Virus record (IMG/VR): IMGVR_UViG_3300037420_000837
Location: 1-64,000 of that record
DNA length: 64,000 nucleotides
Source: a virus
Strand: one strand, 5' to 3'
The notes beneath the pieces are model-generated. The model ran no database searches, was not told the DNA's origin, and worked only from the letters and a program-made list of their open reading frames with translations. A program made the position numbers and the translations under genes. This document shows positions 6,749 to 62,821 of the stretch, one piece after another (within the stretch, counting starts at the first letter, position 1; every line of letters begins with the position of its first letter).

Positions 6749-6749
6749 G

Positions 6750-8471: not shown

Positions 8472-8491
8472 GAGTCCTCCGAAGACCCCTT

Positions 8492-8851
8492 TTACGGACG
8501 GATTTCGACAGCCAGAATCACGGTCGCAGCGTTGGCTGGAGCCGCCGAGAAGGTCACAGCCGCCTTCGACGCATCGGTCACTGCGATGTTGGTCGCGGTG
8601 ATGGTCGCGGTCGCAGTGCCACCCGTACGGCTAAACAGAATCGAGCCCGGGGTGAAGGGCAGCGTCAAAGTGCCGTCGATGAAGTTGAGGTTTGCGGTTG
8701 AAGCAGCGCCGTCGCCCACGAAGGTCGCGGTGCCACGGATAATCTTGGCCTCGCCCCCGGTTGCGCCGGAGTTCACGACGACCACGTTCGAGCCGCCAGA
8801 CGGGATAGTGCCACCTGTAATTGCAGCAAGGTTTCCACCAGTAATTGCCAT
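8492..8851 (-). CDS. hypothetical beta-rich small virion protein (Ig-like?)
   Basis: 119 aa, G/T/A-rich; immediately downstream of terL. Confidence 0.4.
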   Translation of the reverse strand: MAITGGNLAAITGGTIPSGGSNVVVVNSGATGGEAKIIRGTATFVGDGAASTANLNFIDGTLTLPFTPGSILFSRTGGTATATITATNIAVTDASKAAVTFSAAPANAATVILAVEIRP

Positions 8852-8866
8852 TTTATTGTTTTTCCT

Positions 8867-10865: not shown

Positions 10866-10890
10866 ATATATTTGGGACCCTAACGTCCCT

Positions 10891-10915
10891 CAGGGGGCTT
10901 TTTTGTCTGATGGGG
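10891..10915 (-). repeat. 25-nt motif copy upstream of terS
   Basis: rc: CCCCATCAGACAAAAAAGCCCCCTGAGGGAC. Confidence 0.85.
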
Positions 10916-11022: not shown

Positions 11023-11049
11023 GGGGGGGGGAGGGGGGGGGGAGGGGGG
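11023..11049. repeat. homopurine G9-A-G10-A-G6 tract (G-quadruplex-capable / slippage-prone)
   Basis: seen directly in sequence. Confidence 0.9.
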
Positions 11050-11179
11050 TATTATTGATATTAGAGGCTGACAGCCTCATTTTGGCTAAGTGCTTTATTT
11101 GCACCAGATAGCCCAAAAAGTGTCACAAAACGGCTCGTAAGTCGTTGATTCTACGTAGACAACTTTCAGACATCTCTCC

Positions 11180-11208
11180 CATCAGACCTCAAAAGCCCCC
11201 TCTGGAGG
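11180..11208 (+). repeat. 25-nt motif copy facing rightward block
   Basis: CATCAGACCTCAAAAGCCCCCTCTGGAGG. Confidence 0.85.
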
Positions 11209-15091: not shown

Positions 15092-15121
15092 CATCAGACC
15101 TTAACAAGCCCCCTTAGGGGC
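15092..15121 (+). repeat. 25-nt motif copy plus GCCCC-TTA-GGGGC hairpin, upstream of 15131 ORF
   Basis: CATCAGACCTTAACAAGCCCCCTTAGGGGCAAGGAGCCTATG. Confidence 0.85.
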
Positions 15122-15333: not shown

Positions 15334-15413
15334 CGTAGGGCAATGTGGTGAAGCAGTCGGATACTTCTCGAAAAAGTAAACCCCCGGCTAGCGTTTGTTC
15401 CCATTGTCCTACG
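15334..15413 (+). ncRNA. structured RNA element, family copy A (candidate Y-RNA/YrlA-like)
   Basis: 12-bp closing stem CGTAGGGCAATG/CATTGTCCTACG; conserved 5' GGTG(A/T)AG..GGATACTTC and 3' CGTTTGTTCC shared with copies at 23034, 40418, 40497, 24953; internal TACTT-CTCGAAA-AAGTA hairpin. Confidence 0.5.
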
Positions 15414-23033: not shown

Positions 23034-23151
23034 GCGAGTGGTGTAGTAGACGGATACTTCTTTGGATAAGAAACCAGCGACGGCCTCCGAAAGGTGGCTG
23101 GCAAGGTAGGGGGTTCAAATCCCCCGCTTCCGTTTGCGCATGTTCCCTCGC
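23034..23151 (+). ncRNA. structured RNA element, family copy B with tRNA T-arm-like module (candidate Y-RNA/YrlA-like)
   Basis: closing GCGAG/CTCGC; conserved 5' TGGTGTAGTAGACGGATACTTC and 3' CGTTTGCGCATGTTCC; perfect T-arm GGGGG-TTCAAAT-CCCCC at 23109-23125. Confidence 0.5.
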
Positions 23152-23163
23152 ATTTGTTTTTTC

Positions 23164-23188
23164 CTAAGGGGGCTTTTGCTGTCTGATG
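23164..23188 (-). repeat. 25-nt motif copy (reverse orientation) abutting 3' end of RNA element B
   Basis: CTAAGGGGGCTTTTGCTGTCTGATG. Confidence 0.85.
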
Positions 23189-25086: not shown

Positions 25087-25233
25087 TCTAACTTAGTCTG
25101 AGGGCCCCCCGGATAAACAAGGCTGCTAAGGTGTCCGGTGGAGACGGACTGGAGGCAGGGCGGGATTTGGATACCGTTCTGCGATGCTCCGAAGGGGAGA
25201 AAGTTGTACAGGAAAGGGGCTTCGAGGTCTGGT

Positions 25234-25303
25234 GGGGCTGTAGCTCAGCGTTAGAGCACTCGATAATAATCGAGAGGTCGCCGGTTCAATTCCGGTCAGC
25301 CCA
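25234..25303 (+). tRNA. tRNA-like gene with canonical D- and T-arms but 6-nt anticodon loop (TAATAA) and G1-A72 mismatch; possibly pseudo-tRNA or tRNA-mimic
   Basis: GGGGCTG-TA-GCTCAGCGTTAGAGC-A-CTCGA-TAATAA-TCGAG-AGGTC-GCCGGTTCAATTCCGGT-CAGCCC-A; no encoded CCA. Confidence 0.5.
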
Positions 25304-25308
25304 TTGAG

Positions 25309-25333
25309 CATCAGACGGTAGAAGCCCCCTTAC
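25309..25333 (+). repeat. 25-nt motif copy immediately after tRNA-like gene
   Basis: CATCAGACGGTAGAAGCCCCCTTAC. Confidence 0.85.
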
Positions 25334-25354: not shown

Positions 25355-25633
25355 ATGAAACAGTTTAGACACGAAGGCTGCAGATGCAAGCGTTACAAGC
25401 ACTGCGCAGGGTGTGGTGACCACTTCACGTTGAGCACCGCACAAGACGAGAACAAATTCTGCTCGATTCGCTGCGAAGGGAAAGCGAAGACCAATGGTGA
25501 CAAGAGGGGACATCGTCCTGTTAAAAGATTCTCATCCGCTGGTGCAAAGAAATCCGCAACTGGCCAAGCTTACGTGGGTCGCAGTGGGGGACCAAGACGA
25601 GACCGAGGAAGTTTACCTGCACAGGTACGATGA
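25355..25633 (+). CDS. small Cys-rich protein
   Basis: CRCKRYKHCAGCGDHF; GGAGG SD. Confidence 0.35.
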   Translation: MKQFRHEGCRCKRYKHCAGCGDHFTLSTAQDENKFCSIRCEGKAKTNGDKRGHRPVKRFSSAGAKKSATGQAYVGRSGGPRRDRGSLPAQVR

Positions 25634-33686: not shown

Positions 33687-34271
33687 ATGGAAACCCCGGA
33701 GGCATATATCACACAGGTGGTACGGAGGATAACCCCTCAAGGTCCCATTTGGAAGTGTAAGGTTCACGGGGATATTCCGGAAGCTTACATGCTCAGGGGT
33801 GGAGTGGTGGTGCCGTATTGTGGACAGTGCCTGCTCCAGACCCCTGAGGTGAGCTTTGGCAAGGTGGTGTTAAAGAAACGCTGGAGACCGTTTGGAGGTA
33901 GCTCCCGAGGCTACATGTTTCGGGACGGCAAATACCACTGCAGACAGTGTTTCGAGGCCTTTGAGTACATCACCGCTTACGACAACCATCTCGAAGGATG
34001 TGTCGGCAGAGGAATCGGGAGCTTTCGAGTCAACGACAGACGCAGGGTTTCAGCTGACCCAAGCACAGCAAGCCGAATCACCTCGCAAGAAGGTGACCAC
34101 TACTGCACCCTCAGAAACTGCTGGAAGGTCTCCTGCCTGTTCCCGTGTGCAAGCTGCAACCAACACTTTTGCATTGCTCACATGGCTCATTATGCAGTTG
34201 ACACTCCGCTCACAAATCTCTGCGAAGTCTGCGCCAGTGTTGAAGAGTACGCAACCAAGGTCACCCCATGA
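33687..34271 (+). CDS. Cys-rich zinc-binding protein (possible anti-sigma/regulator)
   Basis: multiple CxxC; stop overlaps sigma-factor start. Confidence 0.4.
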   Translation: METPEAYITQVVRRITPQGPIWKCKVHGDIPEAYMLRGGVVVPYCGQCLLQTPEVSFGKVVLKKRWRPFGGSSRGYMFRDGKYHCRQCFEAFEYITAYDNHLEGCVGRGIGSFRVNDRRRVSADPSTASRITSQEGDHYCTLRNCWKVSCLFPCASCNQHFCIAHMAHYAVDTPLTNLCEVCASVEEYATKVTP

Positions 34272-34837
34272 GTGAACAGAATAAGGCGTTTGAAACATGG
34301 AAGCAAGCCAAGGGAACTGAAACCGAGAAAGCAGCCGAGGAGAGGCTGATTAAAGCCCTGAGGAGATATGCCACAAAAATCTGTTGGAACATTCTCAAAG
34401 AAGCCAATCAAGACGTTGTCTCAGCTTCGGTCTTTCAAGCCCTTCAATTCGCTGATGGATTCCGAGGAGACGGAAAATTCTCTACGTGGTTCTATTCTGT
34501 CGTTAAACGGAATTGTCTCTCTGCCATTAGGAAGCGTAAGCGCAGGGCTGAGATTGGAATTGATGACCTGTCTGGGGCGCAGGTCAAACAGCTACCTGTA
34601 CGAGAGGTATCAGACGACGCCATCGCCCTCCGAGAGGTTACCGGAAGGCTGGCTGCTCACGAGCGTGAGTTTCTTGAGTTGAAGGCACACGGGGCGAGCG
34701 ACGAGGAGATTGCTCGGGCGTTGAACATCAAAGAAGGGACTGTGAGGGTGCGGTGGAGTAGGCTTCGGAAGAAGTTGCGAGGGGCGTTGAATGGCGAGGA
34801 AATCAAACTTTCTGAACGCGTTTCTGGTGGGATGTGA
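34268..34837 (+). CDS. sigma-70 family (ECF-like) sigma factor
   Basis: region 2 (FSTWFYSVVKRNCLSAIRKRKR) and region 4 HTH (EEIARALNIKEGTVRVRWSRLRKKLR). Confidence 0.7.
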   Translation: MSEQNKAFETWKQAKGTETEKAAEERLIKALRRYATKICWNILKEANQDVVSASVFQALQFADGFRGDGKFSTWFYSVVKRNCLSAIRKRKRRAEIGIDDLSGAQVKQLPVREVSDDAIALREVTGRLAAHEREFLELKAHGASDEEIARALNIKEGTVRVRWSRLRKKLRGALNGEEIKLSERVSGGM

Positions 34838-37950: not shown

Positions 37951-38216
37951 TTGTCTACTATTTTCTCTGGGGGCTGTTACAACTTGCCTTCTGGATGACT
38001 CTTATAACCGTGGCCCCGTATTGGGTTGGGAAGTATAGCTATGCGCTAATTGCTTACCTCCAAGACGGGCGACGGAAAACCTTGAGAGAGCAGGTGGCTG
38101 ACCTCAACGCGGACAACGAGAGCATCAAGTACCTTGCGTTGTGGATGGTAGGGATGGTGTCAAGCTTTGTGCTTGGCATCCTCTTAGTTACAGCCTACTT
38201 TCTCGGAAGACCCTAA
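37947..38216 (+). CDS. small membrane protein (2-3 TM)
   Basis: 89 aa; stop TAA is inside motif copy 38213-38238. Confidence 0.4.
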   Translation: MIVYYFLWGLLQLAFWMTLITVAPYWVGKYSYALIAYLQDGRRKTLREQVADLNADNESIKYLALWMVGMVSSFVLGILLVTAYFLGRP

Positions 38217-38238
38217 GGGGGCCTTCTAAGGTCTGATG
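38213..38238 (-). repeat. 25-nt motif copy (reverse), left arm of inverted pair
   Basis: CTAAGGGGGCCTTCTAAGGTCTGATG; contains stop codon of 37947..38216. Confidence 0.85.
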
Positions 38239-38427
38239 ATTGATGCGGTGCGGGTGGGTATTGTTTAAATCTGACAAACAGGGACGTACCGGAGAGTGGA
38301 ACACACCAGTTCTTCTCTTCCTTGGCGACAACCCTGTGGCAACGTCTGCTAGGGGGCTTGACGACCCAGTGTCTGATGCCCTCCAACAAACGCATCTAGA
38401 GGAGAATATCCCTCTAGGCAACTCACT

Positions 38428-38453
38428 CATCAGACCTTAAAAGTCCCCTTTGG
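38428..38453 (+). repeat. 25-nt motif copy, right arm of inverted pair, upstream of rsr
   Basis: CATCAGACCTTAAAAGTCCCCTTTGG. Confidence 0.85.
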
Positions 38454-38459
38454 ACTCAA

Positions 38460-38487
38460 CCCCCTCTTCGGAGGGGGATTTTTATTT
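38460..38487 (+). terminator. rho-independent terminator or 5'-UTR stabilising hairpin
   Basis: CCCCCTC-TTCG-GAGGGGG then ATTTTTATTT; sits between motif copy and rsr SD. Confidence 0.55.
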
Positions 38488-38499
38488 GGAGGAGAAACT

Positions 38500-39894
38500 A
38501 TGGCGAGTATAAACAAACAAGTGCCTAGCAATCTGCCTAAGACGTACGAAGGTACGCCTGCGCAGCGGCTGGACACTGAGCAGACCTTGCAGCGGTTGGT
38601 CTTAGCCAACATGCTGTGGGAGGACCAGTTTTACATCGACGGCAAGGCGACGGCTGGGATGATTTCGGAGTTGGTTCCGAAGGTCAGCCCGAAGTTCGTG
38701 GCGGCTCTGGCGGTCTATGCCCGGGAGAAGATGAAGCTCCGGCATGTGCCCCTGTTGCTTGTGCGAGAGATGGCCCGGGCCTCGACGGAGCATAAGCTCC
38801 TCGTGGCTGACACCCTCTCGAAGGTTGTCCAACGTCCGGATGAGATGACTGAGTTTCTGGCCATCTACTGGAAGGAAAAGAAACAGCCTCTCAGTGCGCA
38901 GGTCAAGAAGGGGCTGGCGCAGGCTTTCATGAAGTTTGACGAGTTCCAGCTGAGTCGGTATGACAAGGACGGAGCGGTCAAGCTGCGGGACGTGATGTTC
39001 CTTACCCACCCCAAGCCCAAGGGCAAGTTCGAGACGGTCTACAAGAAGATTGCGGAGCGGAAGACCCAGACCGTCGACACGTGGGAGACCAACCTCAGCG
39101 CTGGCAAGGACAAGAAAGAATCCTTCGAGCGCCTGATGAGCGAGGGCAAGATGGGCGCTCTGGCCGTGCTGCGCAACCTGCGGAACATGCAGGAGGCGGG
39201 CGTGGAGCTGGACAAGATGCGCGAGGCCATCAAGACCATGAAGGTCGAGAGGGTCCTCCCGTTCCGGTTCATTGCGGCCTCACGATATGCTCCGAAGCTG
39301 GAGCCTGAGCTTGAAGAGGCGATGTTTAAGTGCCTCGGAGATGCGCCGAAGTTGAAGGGGCGCACGGCTCTGGTGATTGATACCAGCCCGAGCATGTGGA
39401 TGGCGAACATCTCCATGAAGTCTGAGATGAATCGGGCAGACGCTGCGGCGGCTCTGGCCATGCTCCTGCGGGAGATTTGCGAGAGTTGCAACATCTACAC
39501 GTTCAACCACGAGGCCAAGGCGATTCCGGCACGGCGAGGGTTTGCGCTGCGGGACGCCATCTTTCAGACCAAAGGGGATTACTCCTGCGGCGGTCTGGGC
39601 GTGCACATGGCCAACAAGGACGGCTACGACCGCATTGTCGTGCTGACGGACGGGCAGTGGCATTACTCGAACTATGAGGCCAACTCCGTAGGTACACGGC
39701 ACTCGATGGAGAACTCGGGACACGCGGGCGTCTGTCCGAAGCCCTTGACTCCACTGGCCTACATGCTCAACGTAGCGGCTTACAGGAACGGCGTAGGTTC
39801 CGGAAGCTGGGTCACCATCGACGGATGGTCTGAAGCGGTTGTGGATTACATCCGTGCGTGCGAGGAGGGCTTCGATGTTGAGGCACGTGGATGA
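38500..39894 (+). CDS. rsr: Ro60/Rsr-like protein (TROVE module plus C-terminal vWA domain)
   Basis: N-terminal TYEGTPAQRLDTEQTLQRLVLANMLWEDQFYI (TROVE-like start), helical repeat region, C-terminal vWA with MIDAS LVIDTSPSMWM and DRIVVLTDGQ; GGAGG SD. Confidence 0.6.
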   Translation: MASINKQVPSNLPKTYEGTPAQRLDTEQTLQRLVLANMLWEDQFYIDGKATAGMISELVPKVSPKFVAALAVYAREKMKLRHVPLLLVREMARASTEHKLLVADTLSKVVQRPDEMTEFLAIYWKEKKQPLSAQVKKGLAQAFMKFDEFQLSRYDKDGAVKLRDVMFLTHPKPKGKFETVYKKIAERKTQTVDTWETNLSAGKDKKESFERLMSEGKMGALAVLRNLRNMQEAGVELDKMREAIKTMKVERVLPFRFIAASRYAPKLEPELEEAMFKCLGDAPKLKGRTALVIDTSPSMWMANISMKSEMNRADAAAALAMLLREICESCNIYTFNHEAKAIPARRGFALRDAIFQTKGDYSCGGLGVHMANKDGYDRIVVLTDGQWHYSNYEANSVGTRHSMENSGHAGVCPKPLTPLAYMLNVAAYRNGVGSGSWVTIDGWSEAVVDYIRACEEGFDVEARG

Positions 39895-40411
39895 GATTGC
39901 TCCCGAGGCAATCAAGTACATGAACTCCCGCATGGGGACCTTCGAGTTCCGGGCCAAGACGCGGTACATGAAGGCGTACTGTGCGCTGGTAAGTATCGGC
40001 CTGAAGAGTGAGCATGTGCTCTTGGACATCGGCGCAGGCAGTTGTCAGTTCGACCACTTCATGCGTACGAGGTTCCGTTGGATGGGGAGATACCTTCCGG
40101 TGGATGCAACGCTGGACGGTACGAACCTGAACAACTGGAAGCCCAAGGCGAAAGTGGACTTCGTGGTTTGTCTGGAGACCTTGGAGCACTTGAAGGTTCC
40201 CGACAGAATGCTCAGGCACATCCGCAGCGCGGCGAAGTACGGGGCAGTAGTGACCGTGCCGAATCCGGACGTAGTTGATGTGTTGAGGTGTGACCCTACA
40301 CACGTGAGTGTAGTGGACCCGGGGATGCTGTTACGTCACGGCTTTGAGGTCACGCCGGTCAATTGCTTCGGCAAGAAGGATGACACCTTGCTTGGAGTGC
40401 TGAGCAGATAG
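39875..40411 (+). CDS. SAM-dependent methyltransferase (class I)
   Basis: motif I VLLDIGAGSCQ, later VDFVVCLETLEHL; start overlaps rsr stop. Confidence 0.55.
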   Translation: MLRHVDEIAPEAIKYMNSRMGTFEFRAKTRYMKAYCALVSIGLKSEHVLLDIGAGSCQFDHFMRTRFRWMGRYLPVDATLDGTNLNNWKPKAKVDFVVCLETLEHLKVPDRMLRHIRSAAKYGAVVTVPNPDVVDVLRCDPTHVSVVDPGMLLRHGFEVTPVNCFGKKDDTLLGVLSR

Positions 40412-40417: not shown

Positions 40418-40487
40418 GCAGGGATGGTGTAGAGAACGGTTACTTCTGACTCTTAAACCCGTACCGTTTTCGTTTGTTCCTCCCTGC
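40418..40487 (+). ncRNA. structured RNA element, family copy C1 (candidate Y-RNA-like), 7 nt after methyltransferase stop
   Basis: closing GCAGGGA/TCCCTGC; conserved 5' TGGTGTAGAGAACGGTTACTTC and 3' CGTTTGTTCC; inner AACGGT/ACCGTT stem. Confidence 0.5.
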
Positions 40488-40496
40488 AAAAGATTC

Positions 40497-40625
40497 GGGA
40501 GTGGTGTAGTAGACAGTTACTTCCCTTATAAGGACGATGGCGTTGGTTCGAGTCCAACCAGAGACGAGAGTCTCTGTAGCTCAGTGGTAGAGCACGACCG
40601 TTACTGTTTGCGATTGTTCCCTCCC
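40497..40625 (+). ncRNA. structured RNA element, family copy C2 with tRNA T-arm-like and D-arm-like modules (candidate YrlA-like)
   Basis: closing GGGAG/CTCCC; 5' GTGGTGTAGTAGACAGTTACTTC, 3' GTTTGCGATTGTTCC; T-arm GTTGG-TTCGAGT-CCAAC (40542-40558); canonical D-arm TAGCTCAGTGGTAGAGC (40577-40593); hairpins CCTTATAAGG and AGAGAC-GAGA-GTCTCT. Confidence 0.55.
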
Positions 40626-40704
40626 GAAACACTGTAACAAAAACCCACCCGAGGGCGTCTTATAGACGCCCGCTCCGGGGAGTCCTTTCCCGGAATGGAG
40701 CATA

Positions 40705-42322: not shown

Positions 42323-43210
42323 TTGGGCGAAAATCCCTACCTGACTAGCCACACATTGACGGGGGCCCTCGCTCCTCCACTCCTCCGCCCCCGTCAACCC
42401 TTTCCTAAATTGGCACTTACAATTAAATCCACTCAAAATCTAGTTACTCCGGGGAACTTTCATTGGAAGGTTCTAGTGTATGGTCTTCCCGGAACCGGCA
42501 AGACAAAATGGGCTGCCGGTGCCCCGAACCCGGGAATCATTGCGTGTGAGACCGGCCATGGAAAGGGACTGCTGACGTTGGCAGACCAGACCATCGAGTT
42601 CGTAGAACCCACGACCTTGCAGGACTTTGACGAGGTCGCCTCGGGCAAGGTCTTCAAGGACAAAGAGACCTTGGTGTTTGATAGTTTGTCGTACTTCGTC
42701 AAGACGGTTGTCAAAGACGAAGCTCTCAAGATGCCTAGGAAGTTCGGGGAAAGCGCCAAGCGTAGAGCTGGGGTGCCGGAACTGGACGACTACGGAGTCA
42801 TGGGGGAACTCACCCGGAAGTATGTGGAGAAATTGCTACTGCTTCCTAAGAATGTAGTGGTTCTCGCAACAGAGAAGTACAGCGGGGGCAACGAGGACAA
42901 TCCAGAGATTGTGATTGGCCCCGACCTTCCCGGAGCGATGTTTTTAGGCTCGACTGCTATGTTCGATGCGGTTCTCCGACTCCGCACTAGGCCGAAGTTG
43001 AGAGACCCCAAGGATGCGAAGAGTAAGTATACCGAGAGGTATTTTCTCACGCAGCCCGATGGGGCAGGCACGATTGCGAAATGTAGGAGCACCCTGAATG
43101 GAAAAGCGATTCTGGATAAGGAAGAGGTTTTCGACCTTGAAACGGGAGCTGGAAGTTTTCAGGCGTTGTATGACAAACTTCTGGCGGCTTACAGCCAGAA
43201 CAAGGGGTGA
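42323..43210 (+). CDS. RecA-superfamily ATPase (AAA_24/Sak4-like), start uncertain
   Basis: KVLVYGLPGTGKT Walker A, ETGHGKG; next to nuclease gene as in phage recombination modules; no ATG near P-loop. Confidence 0.45.
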   Translation: MGENPYLTSHTLTGALAPPLLRPRQPFPKLALTIKSTQNLVTPGNFHWKVLVYGLPGTGKTKWAAGAPNPGIIACETGHGKGLLTLADQTIEFVEPTTLQDFDEVASGKVFKDKETLVFDSLSYFVKTVVKDEALKMPRKFGESAKRRAGVPELDDYGVMGELTRKYVEKLLLLPKNVVVLATEKYSGGNEDNPEIVIGPDLPGAMFLGSTAMFDAVLRLRTRPKLRDPKDAKSKYTERYFLTQPDGAGTIAKCRSTLNGKAILDKEEVFDLETGAGSFQALYDKLLAAYSQNKG

Positions 43211-43476
43211 CAGCATGGGGGCGAGGAGTTTCTATGGGGATTTGGGATAAGCACCCGAGCAAGCATAACGCTGATGCGCCTGTGTACCACGACCTCATAG
43301 AAAAGGTCGCCTTAGAGATGTATGACACGTGTTACATAGGGCACATCCCTTGGAACAAGTGGCGTCAGTTTGCAAAGTTTGCAATTGAATACAAGAAGAG
43401 GGAGGAGCGTATGGCAACCAAGAAAAAGACTCTGAAGAAAACTGCTAAGAAGACTGCCAAGAAGTCGAGCAAGTAG
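43207..43476 (+). CDS. hypothetical protein with Lys-rich (KKTAKKTAKK) C-terminal tail, possible DNA-binding
   Basis: histone-H1-like tail repeats. Confidence 0.4.
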   Translation: MTAWGRGVSMGIWDKHPSKHNADAPVYHDLIEKVALEMYDTCYIGHIPWNKWRQFAKFAIEYKKREERMATKKKTLKKTAKKTAKKSSK

Positions 43477-43495
43477 TTGCGAGGCTGCTGCAACC

Positions 43496-43520
43496 CTAAG
43501 GGGGCTTCTTAGGTCTGATG
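43496..43520 (-). repeat. 25-nt motif copy (reverse), left arm of inverted pair
   Basis: CTAAGGGGGCTTCTTAGGTCTGATG. Confidence 0.85.
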
Positions 43521-43577
43521 GTACAGGGCGTGGTAGCTGATACTCAAAGTACACGAGTCGCTAAATGCAGCTTCTAT

Positions 43578-43605
43578 CATCAGGCCGTAGAAGCCCCCTT
43601 GGAGG
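43578..43605 (+). repeat. 25-nt motif copy, right arm of inverted pair, upstream of 43610 ORF
   Basis: CATCAGGCCGTAGAAGCCCCCTTGGAGG. Confidence 0.85.
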
Positions 43606-43609: not shown

Positions 43610-43786
43610 ATGTACCCCGGATGGAAATGTAAGTGTAACTGCCACCCAGACAAGCCGTGTTGTGTTGAATGCTACGTTTGGCACGGAGTCTCTTATCGGA
43701 GGTGGAAAAACGAACTTGAGCCAGCCCAAGGAAACACAAGAGAGGCTGTTCCAAAAAGGACTCGAAGACGTGGTGCGAGGGGCTAA
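43610..43786 (+). CDS. small Cys-rich protein
   Basis: CKCNCHPDKPCCVECYVWH; motif copy plus GGAGG SD directly upstream. Confidence 0.4.
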   Translation: MYPGWKCKCNCHPDKPCCVECYVWHGVSYRRWKNELEPAQGNTREAVPKRTRRRGARG

Positions 43787-44907: not shown

Positions 44908-47364
44908 TTGCCCAAGACAGTTAAAGACACCCCCGGTTGTGAAGGTTGTCCAATGGCTCGGAAGTTTCCGGGCAATACCTTTGTTGCGCCTACGGTGCCC
45001 GTCAAGAGTGAGCTGATTGTGATTGCAGAGGCTCCGGGCGAAGAGGAGCAGCTCCAAGGGGCTCCGCTAGTGGGGGGCTCCGGACGAACCTTCGATGCGC
45101 TGGCCAAGAAGGCTGGCCTCAAACGCGAGGAGATGACGGTTGTTAACTGTATCAACTGTCGCCCTCCGAACAACATCTTTCCTACAGACCCAGATGCCAA
45201 GAGCTACATCTCCAAGGCCGAGGCTGACCAAGCAGTTAGCCAGTGCCTCAAGAACCACGTCGAGCCAGTTCTCAAAGGGCGGAAGTACAAGAAAGCTATC
45301 CTCCTCGGAGACAAAGCGCTTCGTTATATTGCTGGGAAGGAGGGCATCGGCACGTGGAGGGGGAGTCCTCTTCCCATCCCATCTCTTGGCCCCAAGCCCT
45401 TGGCTGTCCCCACGCTACACCCAGCTTACTTGATGCGTGAGCAGGAGATGATTCCTGTGGTCATCAATGACCTTGGGAAGAGTCTAGACGTAACTCCAGA
45501 AAGGTACAACCTCTACCCTACGGTAGAGGATGTGGCGGCTTTCACAGCGCAGGAGTTCACCTTTGACATTGAGACTACCATTCCGAAATCTCGTGACGAA
45601 GCCCCGATTGTACTTCTTGTTGGGCTTACCGCGAAGGATTGTGAAGGAATCGTGGTTCCTTTTCGCGGTGCTTATGTACGCGAGCTGCGTCGTATCTTTG
45701 GACAAGCTAAAGCTGTCACAGGTCACAATTGTATCCAGTTCGACCTGCCAATACTGCGACACTATGGAATCTTCCCTGACGACGACTGTGTCGTCTGGGA
45801 TACGATGTTGCTGCACCACCTGCGGTTCCCCAATCTCCCTCACGACTTGGAGTTCGTCGGGAGTCAATTCTGTCACAAGCCCGCATGGAAACATGACAAG
45901 GTCTCTTTTGAAACATATTGTGCTAGGGACGTTGACGTCACCCATCAGGCTGCTAAGGAACTGCGTCAGCTCATCCGCGAAGAAGGGCTTGAGAGACTCT
46001 ACCATCGTGTCCAAGTACCTCTAGCGAAGATATGTAAGTTGATGGAGGAGACGGGCTTCGCTATCAATGGAAGCCGGATTGAAAAGGTTCGAGAAGCGCT
46101 GCTGACTGAACAACAGGCCCTAGAGCAGAAGCTTCCCGTGCAGCTCAGGAGCTACGACAAGGAAGTCAAGAGGCGTGTGCTTGCACCGCCGGGAACGCTT
46201 GGTAAGAGTGGAAAGCCCGTCAAGTACACTACTGAACCTGCCGTTGAGCGTGTGACTCCTTGGCGTAGCCCTGAGATGAAGAAGAAGTTTCTCTACGGGC
46301 ACGAGGAACCTTGGCAGCTGGGTCTGGATGAGATTCTGGATGTCAAGACCGGACGAGTTACCACCGGCAAGATTGCCCTAGACAAACTCTTCCGCAAGTC
46401 CAAGAACTTTGCCATCCCCGCCCTCAAGAGGCTCAACGCAGTTGATGAACTTCTCACTACCTTCTGTTCCGAAGAGATGGCGACGACCGTCTCAAAGATG
46501 CACCCCCACTTCAATGTCCACGGCACTGCATCTGGACGCCTCTCGTCATCTGACCCTAATCTCCAGAACATTCCTGAATCCGCACGGTTCATCTATGTTC
46601 CTTCACGTCCGGGTTGGAAGATTATTGATGTCGACTACTCTCAAATCGAGAATCGCATCACGGCTTTTCTGGCTGGCGACAAGGAGCGGCTTAGAAGGTT
46701 TGAGGAGAATCCAGACTTTTCTGAGCACCGTTATGCGGCTTCCTTGTTTCTTGGAATACCGTACGAAGAAGTCGAGAAGGATAACGACAAAGACGCTCCG
46801 TACGGAAAGGCCAAGCGTATCGTTCACGGTACAAACTATGGCATGGGAGCCCTGAAGATTTCTAAGCTCTATGACATGGACTTGAAGGACACCAAGAACC
46901 TGCAGGCCACTTGGAAGGGAGCCATTCGGGAGACCATCAAATGGGGCGAGAGGACAGCACAGAGAGCCTACGACGACGGCGTGTTAGTGACCCCCTTCGG
47001 ACGCAAGAGGTGGTTCTATACGAATTCGTACTACACGGAATCGCTCTCGTTTATTCCACAATCCACCGCTGCCGACATTATCTATCGCGCTATGCTTGCG
47101 CTTATGCACGAGCGTATCGGGTGGCCCAAAGAGCGGCTCGCAGGGATTGTGAATGTTGTCGAGCCCTTGCCGGAGCCCGCGAGGTTACTGATTCAGGTGC
47201 ACGACTCGTTGGTTTTCGAGTGTCCGAATGAGATGGTGGACAAGGTTTGTCTGACCATCAAGACGGTCATGGAGCAGCCGTGGCCGGAGTTGAAAGGCTT
47301 CAAGATTCCGATTGGTATCAAGGTCGGAGAATCTTGGGGCGAAGCGGAGAAGTATGTCGTCTAG
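44908..47364 (+). CDS. DNA polymerase, family A, with N-terminal family-4 UDG-like domain and 3'-5' exonuclease domain
   Basis: UDG-like: CEGC, IVIAEAPGEEE, LVGGSGRTFD, NCINCRPPNN; exo: FTFDIETT, GHNCIQFDLPIL, YCARDV; pol motifs A DYSQIENR, B KRIVHGTNYGMG, C QVHDSLVFE; TTG start. Confidence 0.85.
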   Translation: MPKTVKDTPGCEGCPMARKFPGNTFVAPTVPVKSELIVIAEAPGEEEQLQGAPLVGGSGRTFDALAKKAGLKREEMTVVNCINCRPPNNIFPTDPDAKSYISKAEADQAVSQCLKNHVEPVLKGRKYKKAILLGDKALRYIAGKEGIGTWRGSPLPIPSLGPKPLAVPTLHPAYLMREQEMIPVVINDLGKSLDVTPERYNLYPTVEDVAAFTAQEFTFDIETTIPKSRDEAPIVLLVGLTAKDCEGIVVPFRGAYVRELRRIFGQAKAVTGHNCIQFDLPILRHYGIFPDDDCVVWDTMLLHHLRFPNLPHDLEFVGSQFCHKPAWKHDKVSFETYCARDVDVTHQAAKELRQLIREEGLERLYHRVQVPLAKICKLMEETGFAINGSRIEKVREALLTEQQALEQKLPVQLRSYDKEVKRRVLAPPGTLGKSGKPVKYTTEPAVERVTPWRSPEMKKKFLYGHEEPWQLGLDEILDVKTGRVTTGKIALDKLFRKSKNFAIPALKRLNAVDELLTTFCSEEMATTVSKMHPHFNVHGTASGRLSSSDPNLQNIPESARFIYVPSRPGWKIIDVDYSQIENRITAFLAGDKERLRRFEENPDFSEHRYAASLFLGIPYEEVEKDNDKDAPYGKAKRIVHGTNYGMGALKISKLYDMDLKDTKNLQATWKGAIRETIKWGERTAQRAYDDGVLVTPFGRKRWFYTNSYYTESLSFIPQSTAADIIYRAMLALMHERIGWPKERLAGIVNVVEPLPEPARLLIQVHDSLVFECPNEMVDKVCLTIKTVMEQPWPELKGFKIPIGIKVGESWGEAEKYVV

Positions 47365-47722
47365 GAAAGACCACAACGCGGATTGTCAAAAGATTCTCGG
47401 GCAGGAGTGTAACGAGGTAAACGCGTGGTTGGATGACGCGTTTAGGAAGTTCGGCCCTCGTCACAGATTTGTGAAGCATCACTGGGAAGGCGTGGCCAAG
47501 GCTGAGGAGTTGTTTGGTGAGACCGGCAAACAAGCGGCCATCATCCACATCCTCCGAGACTGCGGCCACATCCCCAGCGCAAAGGACTACGAGGATGGGA
47601 CGGTAGATGTCCTCGGGTTCAAGCAAGATGACGGGGAGTATTTCATCGGCCACTGGGATGCAATTGCGTTCCGAAAAGCCGTGAGCGAACACATCCCGTC
47701 CCTAGAAATTAAGTCCGTATAG
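47354..47722 (+). CDS. hypothetical protein
   Basis: ATG overlaps pol stop; stop TAG lies inside motif copy 47720-47741. Confidence 0.4.
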   Translation: MSSRKDHNADCQKILGQECNEVNAWLDDAFRKFGPRHRFVKHHWEGVAKAEELFGETGKQAAIIHILRDCGHIPSAKDYEDGTVDVLGFKQDDGEYFIGHWDAIAFRKAVSEHIPSLEIKSV

Positions 47723-47741
47723 GGGGCTTTTATGTCTGATG
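47720..47741 (-). repeat. 25-nt motif copy (reverse), left arm of inverted pair
   Basis: TAGGGGGCTTTTATGTCTGATG. Confidence 0.85.
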
Positions 47742-47872
47742 CCAAAGTGAGTGAGACCCAGATTTATCCCTGCCCAGCTTGTGGGCAGGATGCCTTTGTG
47801 CTCTTGGAGACCTCCGAGACGCACGAGAAGATTCTCGGGTGCCATCATTGCGGGTATCAGGAGGCCCTCTAA
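47732..47872 (+). CDS. mini zinc-ribbon protein (46 aa) enclosed by inverted motif pair
   Basis: CPACG...CHHCG; ATG is part of the motif copy (GGGGGCTTTTATGTCTGATG). Confidence 0.4.
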   Translation: MSDAKVSETQIYPCPACGQDAFVLLETSETHEKILGCHHCGYQEAL

Positions 47873-47897
47873 CATCAGACCTTAATAGCCCCCTTAG
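47873..47897 (+). repeat. 25-nt motif copy, right arm of inverted pair
   Basis: CATCAGACCTTAATAGCCCCCTTAG. Confidence 0.85.
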
Positions 47898-47956
47898 TGT
47901 TACAATCCCTCCCTTTTGCACGTCCTATATCCCACAGGAGTACCCACCTAAATAAA

Positions 47957-48280: not shown

Positions 48281-49423
48281 GTGAAAATCGAGAACCTTCT
48301 CCCGAAGGAGTCTTGGTTCCGCAAGTACATGCAGCTTTGGCCGACCAGCGAGCCCCCTGAGAGTTTCATTCTGTTCGCAGCAATGAGTGTCTTTGGGGCT
48401 TGCCTCGGCAGGCGAGTCTGGTTCGACCAAGACGTTCACACTATCTATCCCATGATGAGCACCCTGCTCATCGGGCCCTCCGGCACCGGCAAGTCCACCT
48501 CCGCCAAGATGGCCTTCAAGCTCGTCAAGAGTCTCCCTAAAGAAGAACAGCCCCAGATTATCGCTGGGGCTGCAACGCCTGAGAAGCTTCACGATGACCT
48601 GAGGATGAACCCTCATGCCATTCTGTTTGCCTCGGAGCTGGCGAACTTCTTCACGAGGCAGAAGTACATGGAGGGAATGATTCCGTATGTCACGCAACTC
48701 CTCGACTACGAAGACAAGCTTGAGCGGAGAACCATCGGCGGGGGTATTGTCGAGATTGAACGACCTAGCGTCACAGTTCTCGGATGCTCTACTTCAGAGT
48801 GGCTACAAGACCAACTCCCTGACACAGCAACTTCCGGAGGCTTTCTGGCAAGGTTTCTTATTGTTCATGAAGAACATAAGAGTAAGTCTGTTGCCCTGCC
48901 CGGACGAGCCCTCAGTGTCAAGCAACGCGAGAAGTTAGAAGACAAACGCAAGGAGGCCTTCGATGAGTTCAGGGCACTGGTTACACAGAATGTCGGAAGC
49001 TGTGTGTTCGACAATCGAGAGGTGGATGACACCTACACCCAGTGGTACGACTCTCACAAGCCTGCCTCCGGACACCTTGCTCCGTTCGCTGCACGAGCAG
49101 GTGAGTATGTCTTACGACTGGCCGTCATCCTCGCTGTCTCCTGTGACCGGACCATCATCACTGCAGACGACATCAAGTCAGCCATCGCCCTCTACAAGCT
49201 CACGGAACGAAAGCTCCAAGAAGTAATCGTGCCAATGAGCCCGCAGGGCAAGCTGCTGGCGAAGGTGTTGGAGGCCGTAGGAACCGATGCAGTCACGGAC
49301 ACCCAAGTCCGCAGGGCCATGCGGAATCACTGCACAGCTCAGGATGCCGACCGGCTCATCGAGTCCCTCCTCAAATCAGGAGACCTCAGACGTGGTGTCG
49401 ACCAAAAACTCTACAAAGTGTAA
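48281..49423 (+). CDS. P-loop NTPase (DUF3987-like / primase-helicase-associated ATPase, putative)
   Basis: LLIGPSGTGKSTS Walker A, GGFLARFLIV; GTG start abuts upstream stop. Confidence 0.5.
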   Translation: MKIENLLPKESWFRKYMQLWPTSEPPESFILFAAMSVFGACLGRRVWFDQDVHTIYPMMSTLLIGPSGTGKSTSAKMAFKLVKSLPKEEQPQIIAGAATPEKLHDDLRMNPHAILFASELANFFTRQKYMEGMIPYVTQLLDYEDKLERRTIGGGIVEIERPSVTVLGCSTSEWLQDQLPDTATSGGFLARFLIVHEEHKSKSVALPGRALSVKQREKLEDKRKEAFDEFRALVTQNVGSCVFDNREVDDTYTQWYDSHKPASGHLAPFAARAGEYVLRLAVILAVSCDRTIITADDIKSAIALYKLTERKLQEVIVPMSPQGKLLAKVLEAVGTDAVTDTQVRRAMRNHCTAQDADRLIESLLKSGDLRRGVDQKLYKV

Positions 49424-50962: not shown

Positions 50963-51796
50963 CTATTTCGGAAGCTTGTCTAGTTTACTTCGGACGGAGT
51001 CGTTGTCCGCAGGTGTTAAGTACAAAGCCGTTGTCTTCATATCCTTGTGGCCGAGTAGAGACTGCACCGTCCGCAGGTCAACCCCATTACGGAGCAACAA
51101 AGTCGCGTATGTATGACGCAGAGCGTGAAGCCCAATCCCATGAAAGCCAGCCAGATGCAACAGGCGCTTCCAGCGAGCCCGAAGAGTTCTCTCTGACGAG
51201 GTTCGCAGGATTGTATCCGGCGATTCCGCCTTTATCTGGCGCAGCAGCTCAAGCAAATCCGAGCGCAGCGGAACCGAGCGACCAACCTGAGTCTTCGATT
51301 GGTCTGCATCCAAAGTCAGAATCCCTGCATCCAAATCAAAGTTCCCCCAAGTAAGACGCACCATCTCCTTTGTGCGCAACCCCGTGGTCAGGCCGAGAAG
51401 TACTAAGGCCCTGTCTGCGGGGTTTTTTGCTGCCCCAAGAACCGCTTGGATAACCCTCTCGGGGATGGCCTTGCGCGGAGCTTGAGGCTCACGGAGCTTG
51501 CGGATGGAGCTCGCGGGGTTGAACGGGATATCCGGGTCGCGGTCTATCATCCAGTTCCAGAAGGCGCGAACTACGGTCACCTCGAAGTTGATGGTGCGGG
51601 TGGCAGCGCCGTCCCGCAAGCGGAGGATTTTGTAGTCCTCGATGTCCACGCGGAAGAAGTCCGCGACCCAGCGCTTCTCAGGGAAGCGAGAGAAGAAGTT
51701 GTCAAGGGCATCTGCATAGCGACGGGCAGTTGCTTTGGAGCTCGTCAGTTTGACGAAGTCCTCGTACTTGACGCGCATGTCATAAACTTTATTCAT
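50963..51796 (-). CDS. int: tyrosine recombinase/integrase
   Basis: C-terminal catalytic region LRHTYATLLLRNGVDLRTVQSLLGHKDMKTTALYLTPADND (R..HxxR...Y). Confidence 0.8.
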   Translation of the reverse strand: MNKVYDMRVKYEDFVKLTSSKATARRYADALDNFFSRFPEKRWVADFFRVDIEDYKILRLRDGAATRTINFEVTVVRAFWNWMIDRDPDIPFNPASSIRKLREPQAPRKAIPERVIQAVLGAAKNPADRALVLLGLTTGLRTKEMVRLTWGNFDLDAGILTLDADQSKTQVGRSVPLRSDLLELLRQIKAESPDTILRTSSERTLRARWKRLLHLAGFHGIGLHALRHTYATLLLRNGVDLRTVQSLLGHKDMKTTALYLTPADNDSVRSKLDKLPK

Positions 51797-52291: not shown

Positions 52292-55200
52292 TTATTTTGT
52301 TTCAAGTTCAGGTCGAATATCTTCGTGGAAGAACCGAAGAATCTCAAGCTTCTGTTCGTGCAGGTCTTTGATTTGCTGCATCTTCTCTTCGGGCTTGAGG
52401 TCGTTGTCCTGCGCCACGCGTTTCATCTCTTCGCGAATGGCTCCAAGGTCCTTCTCCATCTGCGCGACTGCCTCGTGAGCTTCGACAAGTCGCTGCCTGC
52501 GAGGGTCTTCCAAGTACTGGTCCGCACGGTCAAAGTCCGTGGCGGCGAGATGGTTGAAAGTCCGGTTGAAGATTCGCGAGGATTCTGCCGTGCGGTAGAA
52601 CTCCTGCTCAAGGTTGACTTCCACTTGGTCGAGCTGAGAGCCGACAAAGCGGCGAGCAATCGGGCCGACTACCGGAGCCTTGGCCCACTCCTCGTTGCCG
52701 GAGAGCGGGATGCCTCCAGTGTCGTTGCGGTTTTGCCCTTGGAGGGAGTCTGCCATGTTCTTAGCAAAGCCTCCAACGCCGGTTGTGAAGGAATCGTAGG
52801 CGTGCTCGAAGCGCTTGGGTGAGGTGAGCATGTCACCGACCACAGGCATCTTGGCGAGGCCCTGCTCTTGCCCGGAGTTGTCGTAGATGACCTTCGTAAC
52901 CTTCTGAGCCGTGACCGAGGTGTTCGGGTCGGATTTCTCTGGGTTCTCAAGGTCTTCCATTCCCTTGCCTTCGATGGGGATACCACGGTAGGAATCGTAG
53001 TTGGCCGCCTGCTCGATGGGCTCTTTGAGGATGGGATTGAGAGAGCTGAGAGCTCCGCGTCCGAGACCTTCCCATGGGTTGGACGCCCGGATGTTGAACT
53101 GTCCCGGGACTACGTTTGAGACAAAGTCCAAGGTCGTCTGCTTCCAGTCGATGTTCTTGCGGTAGGTGTCTTCGACCGCAACCTCGATGGGGTTGTAAAT
53201 GACCTTCGCCCAGTGAGGCTTGGGGACCTTGACGTAGTTCATGCGGGTCTGGCCAGTGGTGGTATCGTAGACCGAGCCCAGCATGACGTACCAGTAGTTC
53301 GTCTTGTCCGTGTCGGAGACGTGGTCGATTTCGAGCGAGCCATCATCCCTGACGTATTGCGAGTTCCATTGGAACTGCGCCATCGCCATCAGGGTTGAGA
53401 CTCCGAGCAGACCTCCGGCCATCTTCGGGTCAGATATCATGCGCCCAATAGTTCGTCCGGTTCCCTGCAGGTTCGCATTGAAGAACATGTAGACGAGGTT
53501 GATGGCTGGGGAGAGAGTGCCCGAGGAGCCGAAGTCCGGAGAGCCTCCGAAGTTGCGGGTCTCCCAAGCAGCTTCCTTGGGTGACATCCCGATGCGCTGG
53601 TTGCGCTTGAAGGACATCAGCTTGGTGCTCTGCTCGACGAGGTCGTTGAAGTCCTCAACGGTCTCGATGGTGCGGATGACGTTGCCTGCGGTAGCTTCAG
53701 CGGCTGCCTTGCCGTAGCGGCCTTGGGAGGCCATCTCGATAGGCTTGGCGACCATCTGCTTGAGCGGGTCAACCACCGGACGGTGGAACTCCCGCACGGG
53801 TGAGAGGTTGCGTTGGAGCGTGGAGAAGCCTGCTCTGGAGCGCAGGAAGTCGAGGTACTGCTGGTCCTGTGAGGCCACAGACTTGAAGGCTGAGAGCCAA
53901 TCGGGGACGAAGGTAGCAATGCCTCGGAGGCTCCGAGCGCCGGATTTCGAGAGCCCAGCGTAATCGCCTGCGTCACGCACAAGGTTGGGCACCGAGAACG
54001 CGAGGTTGGCGAGGGTTGCGCCGGTACGGAAGACTGAGGCAGTCGCCCGCAAGAGAGTGCCGCCCACGACAGCGGTTGAAGCGGTCGAGGCGTTCTCGAT
54101 GGTCGAGGCGACGAACTCAGGGACTGCGTATTCGGTCTTGACGCCATCATGCCACGCCACAATGATACCCTCGTTGGGAGCGAGAGTGTGGCGAGTGGCA
54201 GGCTGGATGAGTTGGCCCCAGCCGTTGGGGTCGATGCCAGCAAGGTTTAGAACCGAGCGCACCACGTTGTTCTTCTGGACTTCCTTGTTGGCAATCTCAA
54301 TCTGACGGAGCGCTGCCTCAAAGGGGTCCTGGTTGTAGAGCGGGGAGCCCTCAAGTTCTTGGAGAGCCCTGCGGGTTTTGACCTCCAGAGACTTCGAGGA
54401 GTAGCGAATCTCCGCCTTCTGCATCTCGTCAAGGATACGCTGGAGCGGGATGTAACCTCGGCCTAGTTCAAGGCCTTTGTTGTAGATGCCTTCGGAGATG
54501 AGACCCGAGGCGTGGAGGCTGTCCCACGAGGTCTCAAGCTCTTGGTAGACTTGGTCTGCCCAGCGGTTAACGCGGTCCCAGTTCTCGGGTCCGAGAGACT
54601 CTCGGGTGAGCTGTAGGTCGCGAGCCACCTTGGCGCGGGTGTAGCCCTCGGGGACCACCGTGCTCTGGCGGAGTTTGTTGAGATATTCCCGAGCGTCGGC
54701 GCGGGCCATACGGGCCTTGCGCTTGAGCTCGACTACCTCTCGCATCTTCGAGCTGGATTCCACACGGTCTTGGATATCCATGGTGAGGTCCTTGGCTTGC
54801 TGCTTGTATTGCGCAGCCTCGTTCATCAGCTTGGACATCTTGCCTTGGACGTTGCGGATAGCGCGGTCGTAGGCACGGAGGTTGAGCGTGTCCTTGAGAG
54901 GACCAAGCAGACCTGAGTCTGCGGCCTCGCGGGAGATTTTGCCCAACACAATCCGAGACGCGTAGGAGACTCCAGCACCGCCTCCGTAGGCCATGCGGGA
55001 TTCTTTCCACGGGTCTTGGTCGATGTGAAGCTCGCGGATACCGGTGCGGTTCTGGAAGTCCTTGATGACATCCGGTGCGAACATTCGCAGGAAGCGATTG
55101 GGATTCTGGTTGAGGTAGACGAATTTGTCGTAGAGTTTTTGGAGAGCGTTGTAGGGGAGAGTCCGAAGGGTCTCGACTCGCTGCGGCTCTCGGGTCATGC

Positions 55201-62501: not shown

Positions 62502-62821
62502 TAAGGGTTTGAGGGGGCTTTTGTGTCTGATAGAACCCCGGCTGCAGCCAAGCTTGCCTTGACCGCCTCCACTTGAGCCTTCACATTCAGCAAGGCCGTG
62601 TGGGTTTCTTCAGACTTCGCCACCTGCTCCATGATTAAGGTTTGAACATCGGTTTCAAAACCAACTGCAGTGGTTCCAGCATCCTCAACAGCCTTGTCGA
62701 GTGCCATGACATTGAGGGTGTGGATGTTGTCCGTGGAGGGGTCATCGCAGCACCGCAGGGTGACTGCGATTTCTCCATTGGACAGGTCTTTGATTTCAAT
62801 TACTTTAGTAACACATGCCAT
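62501..62821 (-). CDS. hypothetical protein
   Basis: 106 aa ORF. Confidence 0.4.
   Translation of the reverse strand: MACVTKVIEIKDLSNGEIAVTLRCCDDPSTDNIHTLNVMALDKAVEDAGTTAVGFETDVQTLIMEQVAKSEETHTALLNVKAQVEAVKASLAAAGVLSDTKAPSNP
62511..62533 (-). repeat. 25-nt motif copy about 10 nt upstream of start of 62232..62501
   Basis: GAGGGGGCTTTTGTGTCTGATAG on plus strand. Confidence 0.8.

Follow-up and report, generated by a model that had tools for sequence, protein, structure and literature searches.

Judged by analogy, the closest known counterparts of the repeat described here are found in mycobacteriophages, namely the start-associated sequences and their extended form (SAS/ESAS) in Cluster K and the stoperators in Cluster A. 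The repeat is a motif of ~25 nucleotides (nt), CCTAAGGGGGCTTTTnnGGTCTGATG, which recurs singly and in inverted pairs along positions 1 to 64,000 of the IMG/VR virus record IMGVR_UViG_3300037420_000837. This stretch of DNA, called the window below, is the reference for all coordinates that are not assigned to another genome, and it represents most of the ~70.5-kb genome of an uncultured tailed phage. A preliminary description of the window had noted three of the inverted pairs, the first of them at 38213-38453. In Cluster K, the 13-bp SAS is present in 11-19 copies per genome, at or just 5' of starts (PMC3203893). A binding partner, either RNA or protein, has been proposed (PMC3203893, PMC12699233), and as late as 2025 the function of SAS/ESAS was unknown (PMC12699233). 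In Cluster A, the stoperators are also 13 bp long, number ~24-36 per genome, lie mainly in one orientation with respect to transcription and are recognised in two parts by a two-domain monomer (PMC6550527, PMC9283540).

The motif of the window resembles SAS/ESAS in being a short conserved repeat that is dispersed at starts and overlaps the ribosome-binding site, in forming imperfect inverted-repeat pairs, and in having a consensus that differs between sublineages. However, the SAS almost always has one orientation and the inverted repeats of the ESAS are a separate 17-bp motif with a spacer of 4-13 bp, whereas the window phage uses a single 25-nt motif in both directions, with pairs that span 60-320 nt (up to kilobases) and enclose RNAs. 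The window motif also occurs within coding sequences, and its phage family and host are unrelated to those of SAS/ESAS. Nor does it keep to one orientation at 3-8 nt from the start, as SAS/ESAS do, since its distance to the next start ranges from 2 to ~140 nt with no fixed short spacing. With the stoperators it shares an asymmetric sequence, a scattered distribution over short intergenic regions and genes, and a consensus peculiar to each lineage; stoperator variants co-evolve with the phage factor. Its orientation over six genomes appears nearly balanced (28:18, P = 0.09), in contrast to that of the stoperators, and tends to alternate, and some of its copies belong to conserved RNA structures.

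A loose pattern for the motif finds 13 copies in the window, compared to 0.09 expected from shuffled sequences. The regular expression and a duplex search together give a total of 16 copies, a count that allows for the insertion of one base and for the variant TGATA and that includes the degenerate copy at 25207; an extra, split copy at 38346-38381 is counted apart. The motif is bipartite and asymmetric, and consists of a G-run, a T-run and a variable 8-nt box, with a spacer of 6 to 8 nt. Its copies are situated at stop/start junctions and cistron boundaries. The sense orientation of the motif is designated A and the opposite orientation on the mRNA is designated B. The motif is a real, non-random and evolutionarily maintained feature of this genome. 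Two familiar identities were considered for it and rejected. An intrinsic terminator is suggested by a CCC-TAA-GGG mini-hairpin and a T-run in about two-thirds of the copies, but this hairpin has 3-5 bp only. An ECF or sigma-70 promoter would have a geometry that the motif lacks, and there are no promoter-like hexamers.

Neighbouring copies no more than 330 nt apart form six pairs, and all six are inverted (P ~1e-5); random placement gives 1.2 close pairs. The three pairs of the preliminary description (38213/38428, 43496/43578 and 47720/47873) are all found at the places where they were reported, but the window holds six pairs and at least 16 copies. The three further pairs are 10888/11180, 25207/25309 and 56149/56469, the last of which is in frame within a giant open reading frame (ORF) of 2571 amino acids (aa). 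A repeat search delimits pair 1 as 38213-38238 and 38428-38452 (29 nt, 86% complementary) and pair 2 as 43496-43521 and 43578-43602 (26 nt, 85% complementary), while pair 3 is formed by 47717-47742 and 47873-47897. The folds of the sense strand at these three pairs are much more stable than those of shuffled sequences, with z = -5.7 for pair 1 and -5.2 and -4.8 for pairs 2 and 3; the tRNA-like module at 25207-25333 has z = -3.9. On the sense strand the arms are predicted to form duplexes of 19-33 pairs with energies of -31 to -55 kcal/mol, in agreement with the imperfect RNA duplex proposed earlier. A long hairpin resembling a substrate of RNase III is a fair description of these predicted duplexes, which supply the largely uninterrupted RNA double strand, at least ~20 bp in length, that is found at RNase III sites. 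Over six genomes, neighbouring copies are oppositely oriented in 30 of 40 cases (P = 0.001). Relative to transcription, 28 copies are B and 18 are A in the same genomes (P = 0.09).

The arms of pairs 1 to 3 lie at the ends and beginnings of genes. In pair 1, arm A (CCCTAAGGGGGCCTTCTAAGGTCTGATG, 38211-38238, +) holds the TAA stop codon of the upstream gene at 38214-38216. It is followed by the internal split copy (38346-38381, +), in which CTGCTAGGGGGCTTG and GTGTCTGATG are separated by a spacer, and by arm B (TCACTCATCAGACCTTAAAAGTCCCCTTTGGA, 38423-38454, +). A hairpin with a T-run, resembling an intrinsic terminator (38460-38490, +), is situated between arm B and the gene of a TROVE/Ro60 protein. 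Arm A of pair 2 is at 43494-43523 (+) and arm B at 43575-43604 (+), the latter being followed by GGAGGG and an ATG at 43610. In pair 3, arm A (47717-47742, +) includes the TAG stop codon of a DUF6915 gene (47720-47722) as well as a Shine-Dalgarno-like run and the ATG of a 46-aa ORF, and arm B (47873-47899, +) is followed by a gene start at 47957. The stop codon that was said to lie inside the motif is present in pairs 1 and 3 but not in pair 2, where the upstream gene stops at 43474-43476 and thus 20 nt short of the motif. The forward copy does precede the next gene, by 8 to 60 nt.

There is no similarity among the interiors of the pairs, which comprise a tRNA-like RNA, a 190-nt RNA, a 57-nt extension of a stem and an ORFan ORF. 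The preliminary description had assigned a mini-ORF to the interior of pair 1 (38239-38427, +), but this segment is noncoding and structurally conserved. It is homologous to positions 5523-5702 of L041, the nearest different genome, whose DNA polymerase (PolA) is 64% identical. The complete homologue of the pair 1 element in L041 extends from 5492 to 5734 and is flanked by L041's own version of the motif. The two elements have in common the blocks ATGyGGTGCGGnTGGGT, TTAAATC, CTGCTAGGGGGCTTG, CCAACAAACrCATCT and AGGCAACT. The reading frames of these blocks differ between the window and L041, and the frame of the mini-ORF is not kept, showing that no protein is conserved and that the conserved entity is an RNA or single-strand structure. 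An RNAalifold analysis of the two sequences gave 58 pairs, all of them kept in both phages, with 17 of the 58 changed on both sides. When the pairing partners were slid by 1-3 columns as a control, 36-45% of the cells were paired and 0-2 pairs were compensated, compared to 100% paired for the real partners. The covariation, from two sequences only, is suggestive and is consistent over seven helices. The modelling suggests that 38239-38427 is a conserved structured RNA of ~190 nt and not an ORF. The 3' box of the split copy follows the genome-specific variant in L041 too. Its predicted accessibility is inconsistent between the two homologues, the mean unpaired probability being 0.13-0.52. No further homologue of the 38213-38453 RNA was found in IMG/VR, a scan of metagenomes gave two chance matches, and nhmmer found none in the sampled parts of L042, L043, L046-L051 and L065-L067. 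A hammerhead ribozyme with a CUGAUGA core was also considered and rejected: GAAA, stem II and an Rfam match are all lacking, and conservation does not include the A that follows CTGATG.

The arms of the pair 25207/25309 form a predicted helix that sits directly on the acceptor stem of a tRNA-like RNA. This module (25207-25333, +) consists of a degenerate arm A (25207-25232), the RNA (25234-25304, +) and arm B (25309-25333). The RNA scores 50.7 bits against the Rfam tRNA family and has a six-base "anticodon loop" (UAAUAA), for which ARAGORN names no anticodon. It is an RNA gene, not an ORF. Since it is embedded between motif arms, it may mimic a tRNA and take no part in decoding. Pair 2 is a bare hairpin of ~107 nt, and the mini-ORF once assigned to it amounts to the 57 enclosed nucleotides that lengthen the stem. 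The 46-aa CxxC...CxxC ORF of pair 3 (47732-47872, +) is called by gene callers, and its ATG is part of the motif, as was described. It is at most a putative zinc-ribbon ORF: the Pfam zinc-ribbon matches are all below their cut-offs, and there is no homologue among 1.84 billion representative proteins. Small Cys-rich ORFs of the CxxC type are situated inside or directly after motif modules at 25356-25520, 43610-43786 and 47732-47872. Two other long inverted repeats, both intergenic and unrelated to the motif, are present at 36508-36545/36612-36649 (38 nt, 76% complementary) and 16776-16806/16879-16909 (31 nt, 81% complementary), and both are candidates for additional structured RNAs.

The most informative fact about the motif, which is beyond the reach of a single sequence, is that relatives carry lineage-specific variants of it. 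The phage belongs to a family of uncultured 65-70 kb phages, in which the window and five relatives have six different variants. The variant of L041 is GGGGGCTTCTnnnGGTTGGTG (five copies and the split copy), that of L046 is GGGGGCTTCTnnGGGCTGATA (three copies), that of L067 is GGGGGTTTTAAGGCTGA (eight copies), that of L066 is CCTCAGCCCCAAAACCCGTCT (nine copies, one of them within the PolA coding sequence at 11128-11142) and that of L050 is TGAACCCCTTTTTAGGTAGG (five identical copies), the counts being of copies seen in the sampled parts of these genomes. All variants retain the same architecture, in which a run of G or C and a run of A/T are combined with a specific box. Within each genome the variant is uniform among the copies, including those in coding sequence. 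Such concerted change within a genome requires that a trans-acting factor co-evolves with the motif or that the copies are efficiently homogenised. The eight copies in L067 strictly alternate in orientation, and two of them flank PolA and the next gene. An upstream stop codon is found inside A copies in five genomes (38214 and 47720 in the window, 5499-5501 in L041, 12402-12404 in L046, 2825 in L050 and 2164-2166 in L066). The junction 3' of PolA holds a pair in the window, a pair 0.7 kb apart in L067, a single copy in L050 and none in L041. The motif was not detected in the family members L042, L043, L051 and L065, though these have the family's tyrosine recombinase, and in L046 the divergent promoter region is free of it. 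L049, a different phage from L046, has no motif. In L050 an HNH-like small ORF (~3570-3800) lies 5' of a motif copy.

Two copies of the motif lie within the giant ORF (52292-60007, -), in which LPD38 is the sole domain recognised. Copy A (56149-56173, -) is in frame and encodes PKGASVSDV, and the other copy (56469-56493, +) is also in frame and encodes SSDQKAPL on the minus strand. Both have orthologous counterparts in L041, where aa 479 aligns with aa 1276 of the window protein, and the A copies occupy aa 482-490 and aa 1279-1287, respectively. The peptides at the two sites are SSDQKAPL in the window and TNPVEAPI in L041, and PKGASVSDV and PTGASVVGG. They differ in such a way as to fit the variant of each genome, showing that the nucleotide motif is selected even against the constraint on the protein. 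On the sequence evidence, orthologous copies that match the variant of their own genome suggest recognition by a co-evolving factor. In both phages an in-frame GUG occurs 5 nt after the G-run of copy A, and this might be an internal start for a C-terminal product.

Imperfect duplexes of at least 20 bp that flank a stable RNA or lie between cistrons are known as RNase III stalks from the rRNA operon and from the intercistronic R sites of phage T7. The known RNase III sites have structure in common, not sequence. We tentatively favour, at rather less than an even chance, a comparable role at the RNA level, with the inverted pairs as putative closing stems for processing or translational coupling. 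This role is favoured because a conserved RNA has the motif as its outer helix, because a motif helix abuts the acceptor stem of the tRNA-like RNA, and because the copies occupy gene boundaries. When transcribed, the inverted arms would pair into an imperfect stem of ~20-33 pairs. The stem would enclose an RNA module, either the tRNA-like RNA, the ~190-nt RNA, a bare hairpin or the segment with a mini-ORF, and would place the upstream stop codon beside the downstream ribosome-binding site. The stems would then be signals for processing or insulation within a polycistronic transcript. A double-strand-specific RNase, such as RNase III, might cleave the stem and free the embedded RNA, and coupling of upstream termination to downstream initiation may be a further function of the stem. 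A phage-specific factor would read the motif in a sequence-specific manner. The data show the repeat family, the surplus of inverted pairs, the predicted folds, the conserved and covarying structure inside pair 1, and the variants peculiar to each lineage at orthologous sites; the formation of the stems in vivo, their cleavage and the existence of the factor are inferred.

A number of observations weigh against closing stems. RNase III needs no conserved sequence and so leaves the conservation of the motif unexplained; unlike the known stalks, the motif is conserved in sequence at all sites and also exists as single, unpaired copies (4 of the 16 in the window have no partner). Cognate arms are no more complementary than non-cognate ones (means of -49.4 and -47.5 kcal/mol, respectively), and there is no cognate preference within the inner 20 nt of the motif. 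As a result, pairing cannot be separated from the presence of the same motif in opposite orientations. The asymmetry of G-U pairs between the plus and minus strands is inconsistent, and on the mRNA 10 of the 16 window copies are B-oriented. Within the giant ORF the pair has the reversed order, B then A, and faces outward. Distances of 0.6-4.7 kb between partners, as seen in L066 and L067, are implausible for stems on a translated mRNA. No gene for an RNase or an RNA-binding protein was identified besides that of Ro60, which has other partners. The equal pairing of non-cognate arms, the inconsistent G-U asymmetry, the single copies, the partners kilobases apart and the generic nature of RNase III make a site acting at the DNA level nearly as likely, though itself doubtful. 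The motif would in that case be bound as double-stranded DNA by a phage-encoded sequence-specific protein, as a roadblock similar to a stoperator or insulator, or as an ECF-sigma promoter or regulatory site. The pairs would be two opposed sites flanking a unit, and the complementarity of the arms would be a by-product. The asymmetric, bipartite structure of the motif with its 6-8 nt spacer is consistent with such a site, and the lineage-specific variants found in all copies are reminiscent of the stoperators, which co-evolve with the repressor (PMC6550527, PMC9283540). Binding to DNA would account for the concerted variants, and for the copies that lie in coding sequence, no less well than closing stems do. 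The two copies in the divergent regulatory region (10888-10912, +, and its partner 11180-11205, -) are each directed at their own gene block, and the phage encodes an ECF-type sigma factor (34268-34837, +; Pfam Sigma70_r2 1.9e-8, r4_2 1.7e-7) and a tyrosine recombinase. However, the orientation bias is weak, whereas stoperators are almost all oriented one way; there is no -35/-10 geometry, the divergent promoter region of L046 is without a copy, and no helix-turn-helix repressor was found among the small ORFs. A DNA site also gives no reason for the motif to be both the outer helix and an internal element of a conserved structured RNA, or to abut the acceptor stem of the tRNA-like RNA. Because the 240-nt RNA at 38213-38453 carries three motif copies, and its internal box changes in step with the dispersed copies in L041, this conserved RNA could itself be the specificity factor. 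It would be a trans-acting antisense master regulator with a dispersed regulon, whose A-type sequences (the 5' arm and the split copy) base-pair with B copies just 5' of ribosome-binding sites in other mRNAs; we regard this as unlikely. The single copies are mostly B-oriented and directly 5' of start sites, as such pairing would have it, but the internal copy is unpaired inconsistently in the two homologues, the sampled parts of L046, L050, L066 and L067 yielded no homologue of the RNA despite their motif families, and a protein factor explains the co-variation equally well. It is similarly improbable that the RNA and the dispersed motif constitute a phage-private system of RNA-RNA recognition, the RNA being a guide, an antisense regulator or a decoy for a motif-binding factor. 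If true, one RNA, with a box that co-evolves with more than 15 target sites at cistron boundaries and within the giant ORF, would set the processing or translation of many phage genes together.

The preliminary description had also compared the pairs to MITEs (miniature transposable elements with inverted repeats). The arms do resemble the terminal inverted repeats of MITEs and Correia elements, being 25-29 nt long and 85-86% complementary around segments of 80-320 bp, and the cargo is variable; at some junctions, one phage has a cassette where another has a single copy or none. In Correia elements and REPINs, inverted repeats of ~25 nt surround 50-150 nt at gene boundaries and the hairpins, once transcribed, can be RNase III substrates and influence genes nearby (PMC2649163, PMC3116915). 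However, the Correia elements of Neisseria and the REPINs are homologous in their interiors, come with target duplications (Correia) or with a RAYT (REPIN), and have hundreds of chromosomal copies, and none of these was found here. The interiors are dissimilar, unlike those of MITE copies; there are no direct repeats outside the arms at any pair that would indicate target-site duplications; and a Pfam scan of 61 window ORFs found no transposase, RAYT or HNH protein (~6.5 kb of the genome is outside the window). A host repetitive extragenic palindromic element or MITE was rejected on single matches alone: 185,579 species genomes gave nine, each in a different genome of unrelated taxa, and a motif scan of IMG/VR gave 40 loci with one match each, which is chance level, and no multi-copy contig. 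The orthologous copies in coding sequence have been retained and converted to the local variant, and the pair in the giant ORF faces outward. In the comparison for empty sites, four contigs with the same PolA were almost identical to the window, and in L041 the flanking genes differ. The reading of the pairs as miniature mobile elements of the MITE, REPIN or Correia kind, or as transposon-end cassettes with the single copies as footprints, is largely refuted and has very little probability left. The PeSL of T4-type phages, direct repeats of a sigma-70 early promoter and a terminator-like stem-loop (PMC2839356, PMC4122927), are like the window motif composite conserved motifs flanking small variable ORFs, and are tied to the gain and loss of ORFs. 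Unlike PeSL, the window motif is without -35/-10 elements and forms inverted pairs. The likeness of Correia elements, REPINs and PeSL to the window motif is superficial. It is slightly less probable still that the inverted copies are crossover sites of the ~280-aa tyrosine recombinase and the enclosed segments invertible switches. The short segments between inverted repeats include the divergent promoter region, neighbouring copies alternate in orientation, and the short recombinase lies beside the giant gene in every family member sampled, but the motif lacks the internal dyad and central spacer of the core sites of tyrosine recombinases, and inversion of 56149-56493 in silico interrupts the giant ORF with a stop codon. 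Four assemblies made independently from other samples match the window at 100% (one at 99.99%) through all cassettes and have the same orientation, although minority orientations are invisible in a consensus. Furthermore, L042, L043, L051 and L065 have the recombinase and no detectable motif.

The least probable reading, that the arms are stems bound by Ro60 and the modules its Y RNAs, is very unlikely, although the position of pair 1 invites it. The pair 1 element lies 47 nt 5' of the TROVE/Ro60 gene (38500-39894, +) on the same strand, well within the ~4 kb of YrlA-type Y RNAs. A tRNA-like RNA is enclosed in one module, as in bacterial Y RNAs (PMC4201824), L046 carries both Ro60 and a similar motif, and the motif core GGUCUGAUG is similar to the vertebrate Ro-binding GGUCCGAUG. 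The corresponding box in L041 is, however, GGTTGGTG. The pair 1 element does not have the tRNA-like T/AS/D domain and GNCGAAN0-1G motif of YrlA, and Rfam YrlA (RF02553) has no match in 38000-38600 even at E <= 10. Two separate Y-RNA-like modules (40419-40486 and 40496-40627, +) lie 3' of the Ro60 gene and of a SAM-dependent methyltransferase gene (39839-40411), which overlaps the Ro60 gene end. They contain the sole YrlA match, a partial one in a local search (40535-40596, 35.5 bits, E = 7.8e-6). Their conserved stem, GGTGTAG..ACGGTTAC, differs from the motif and recurs at 15343-15367 and 23036-23060, and the same stem is found with tRNA-like pieces 5' of the Ro60 gene of L046 (9600-9870), whose Ro60 is 62% identical to that of the window. 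The modules at 40419-40627 are probably the true partners of the phage Ro60. The L041 homologue of pair 1 has no Ro60 neighbour. In both phages the element lies 5' of the PDDEXK/Sak4 module, so that the block of Ro60, methyltransferase and Y RNA appears to be an insertion in the window relative to L041. The presence of separate Y-RNA-like modules, and of an L041 homologue without Ro60, shows that the stem formed by A and B is not a canonical Ro60 partner.

The four single copies are also found at gene ends and starts. The copy at 1513-1538 (+) fills the gap between the portal gene (1539-3524, -) and the next minus-strand gene. The copy at 15092-15119 (-) is directly 3' of a stop codon and is followed by AAGGAG and an ATG, that at 23163-23188 (+) is 20 nt 5' of a COOH-NH2 ligase gene, and that at 62508-62533 (+) coincides with the last codons of a minus-strand gene, the next start being 12 nt on. 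The genes of 270-10865 point leftward, those of 11343-50935 rightward, and those from 50963 on leftward once more. Between the first two blocks, the divergent regulatory region contains a long interrupted poly-G tract (GGGGGGGGGAGGGGGGGGGGAGGGGGG, 11024-11050). L046 has matching poly-C tracts at the same divergent place (4425-4500), showing that the tract is conserved and is not an artefact of assembly. The window also encodes a terminase (8867-10378, -), several COOH-NH2 ligases of the phiEco32 type, a Sak4-like annealing protein (42323-43210), a fusion of UDG and PolA (44908-47364, +), a primase (48281-49423) and the 277-aa tyrosine recombinase (50963-51796, -). Homologues of the ECF sigma factor were found in L042, L043, L050, L066 and L067, and a tyrosine recombinase of ~280 aa, the size of Xer or Fim, adjoins the giant gene in all family members sampled; the sigma factor and the recombinase suggest a temperate lifestyle. 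The giant protein has no relative in the PDB, and an RNA polymerase within it was considered and rejected, LPD38 alone being recognised. No close relative by DNA or PolA was found in INPHARED or IMG/VR, and none among cultured phages. The terminase is only ~27% identical to those of LUZ24-like phages. PolA has several hundred homologues of 50-65% identity on metagenome contigs of 60-72 kb.

Dispersed, lineage-specific repeats at gene boundaries have been known from mycobacteriophages, where the stoperators are understood and SAS/ESAS are not. A comparable repeat system is now seen in an unrelated, uncultured phage family that is represented by several hundred metagenomic contigs. It is unusual in that one motif is used in both orientations, that its predicted stems surround a tRNA-like RNA and a structured RNA, and that the motif is kept inside coding sequence. 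The co-variation of the motif variants provides a handle on the putative trans-acting factor and on whether the motif acts at the level of DNA or RNA.

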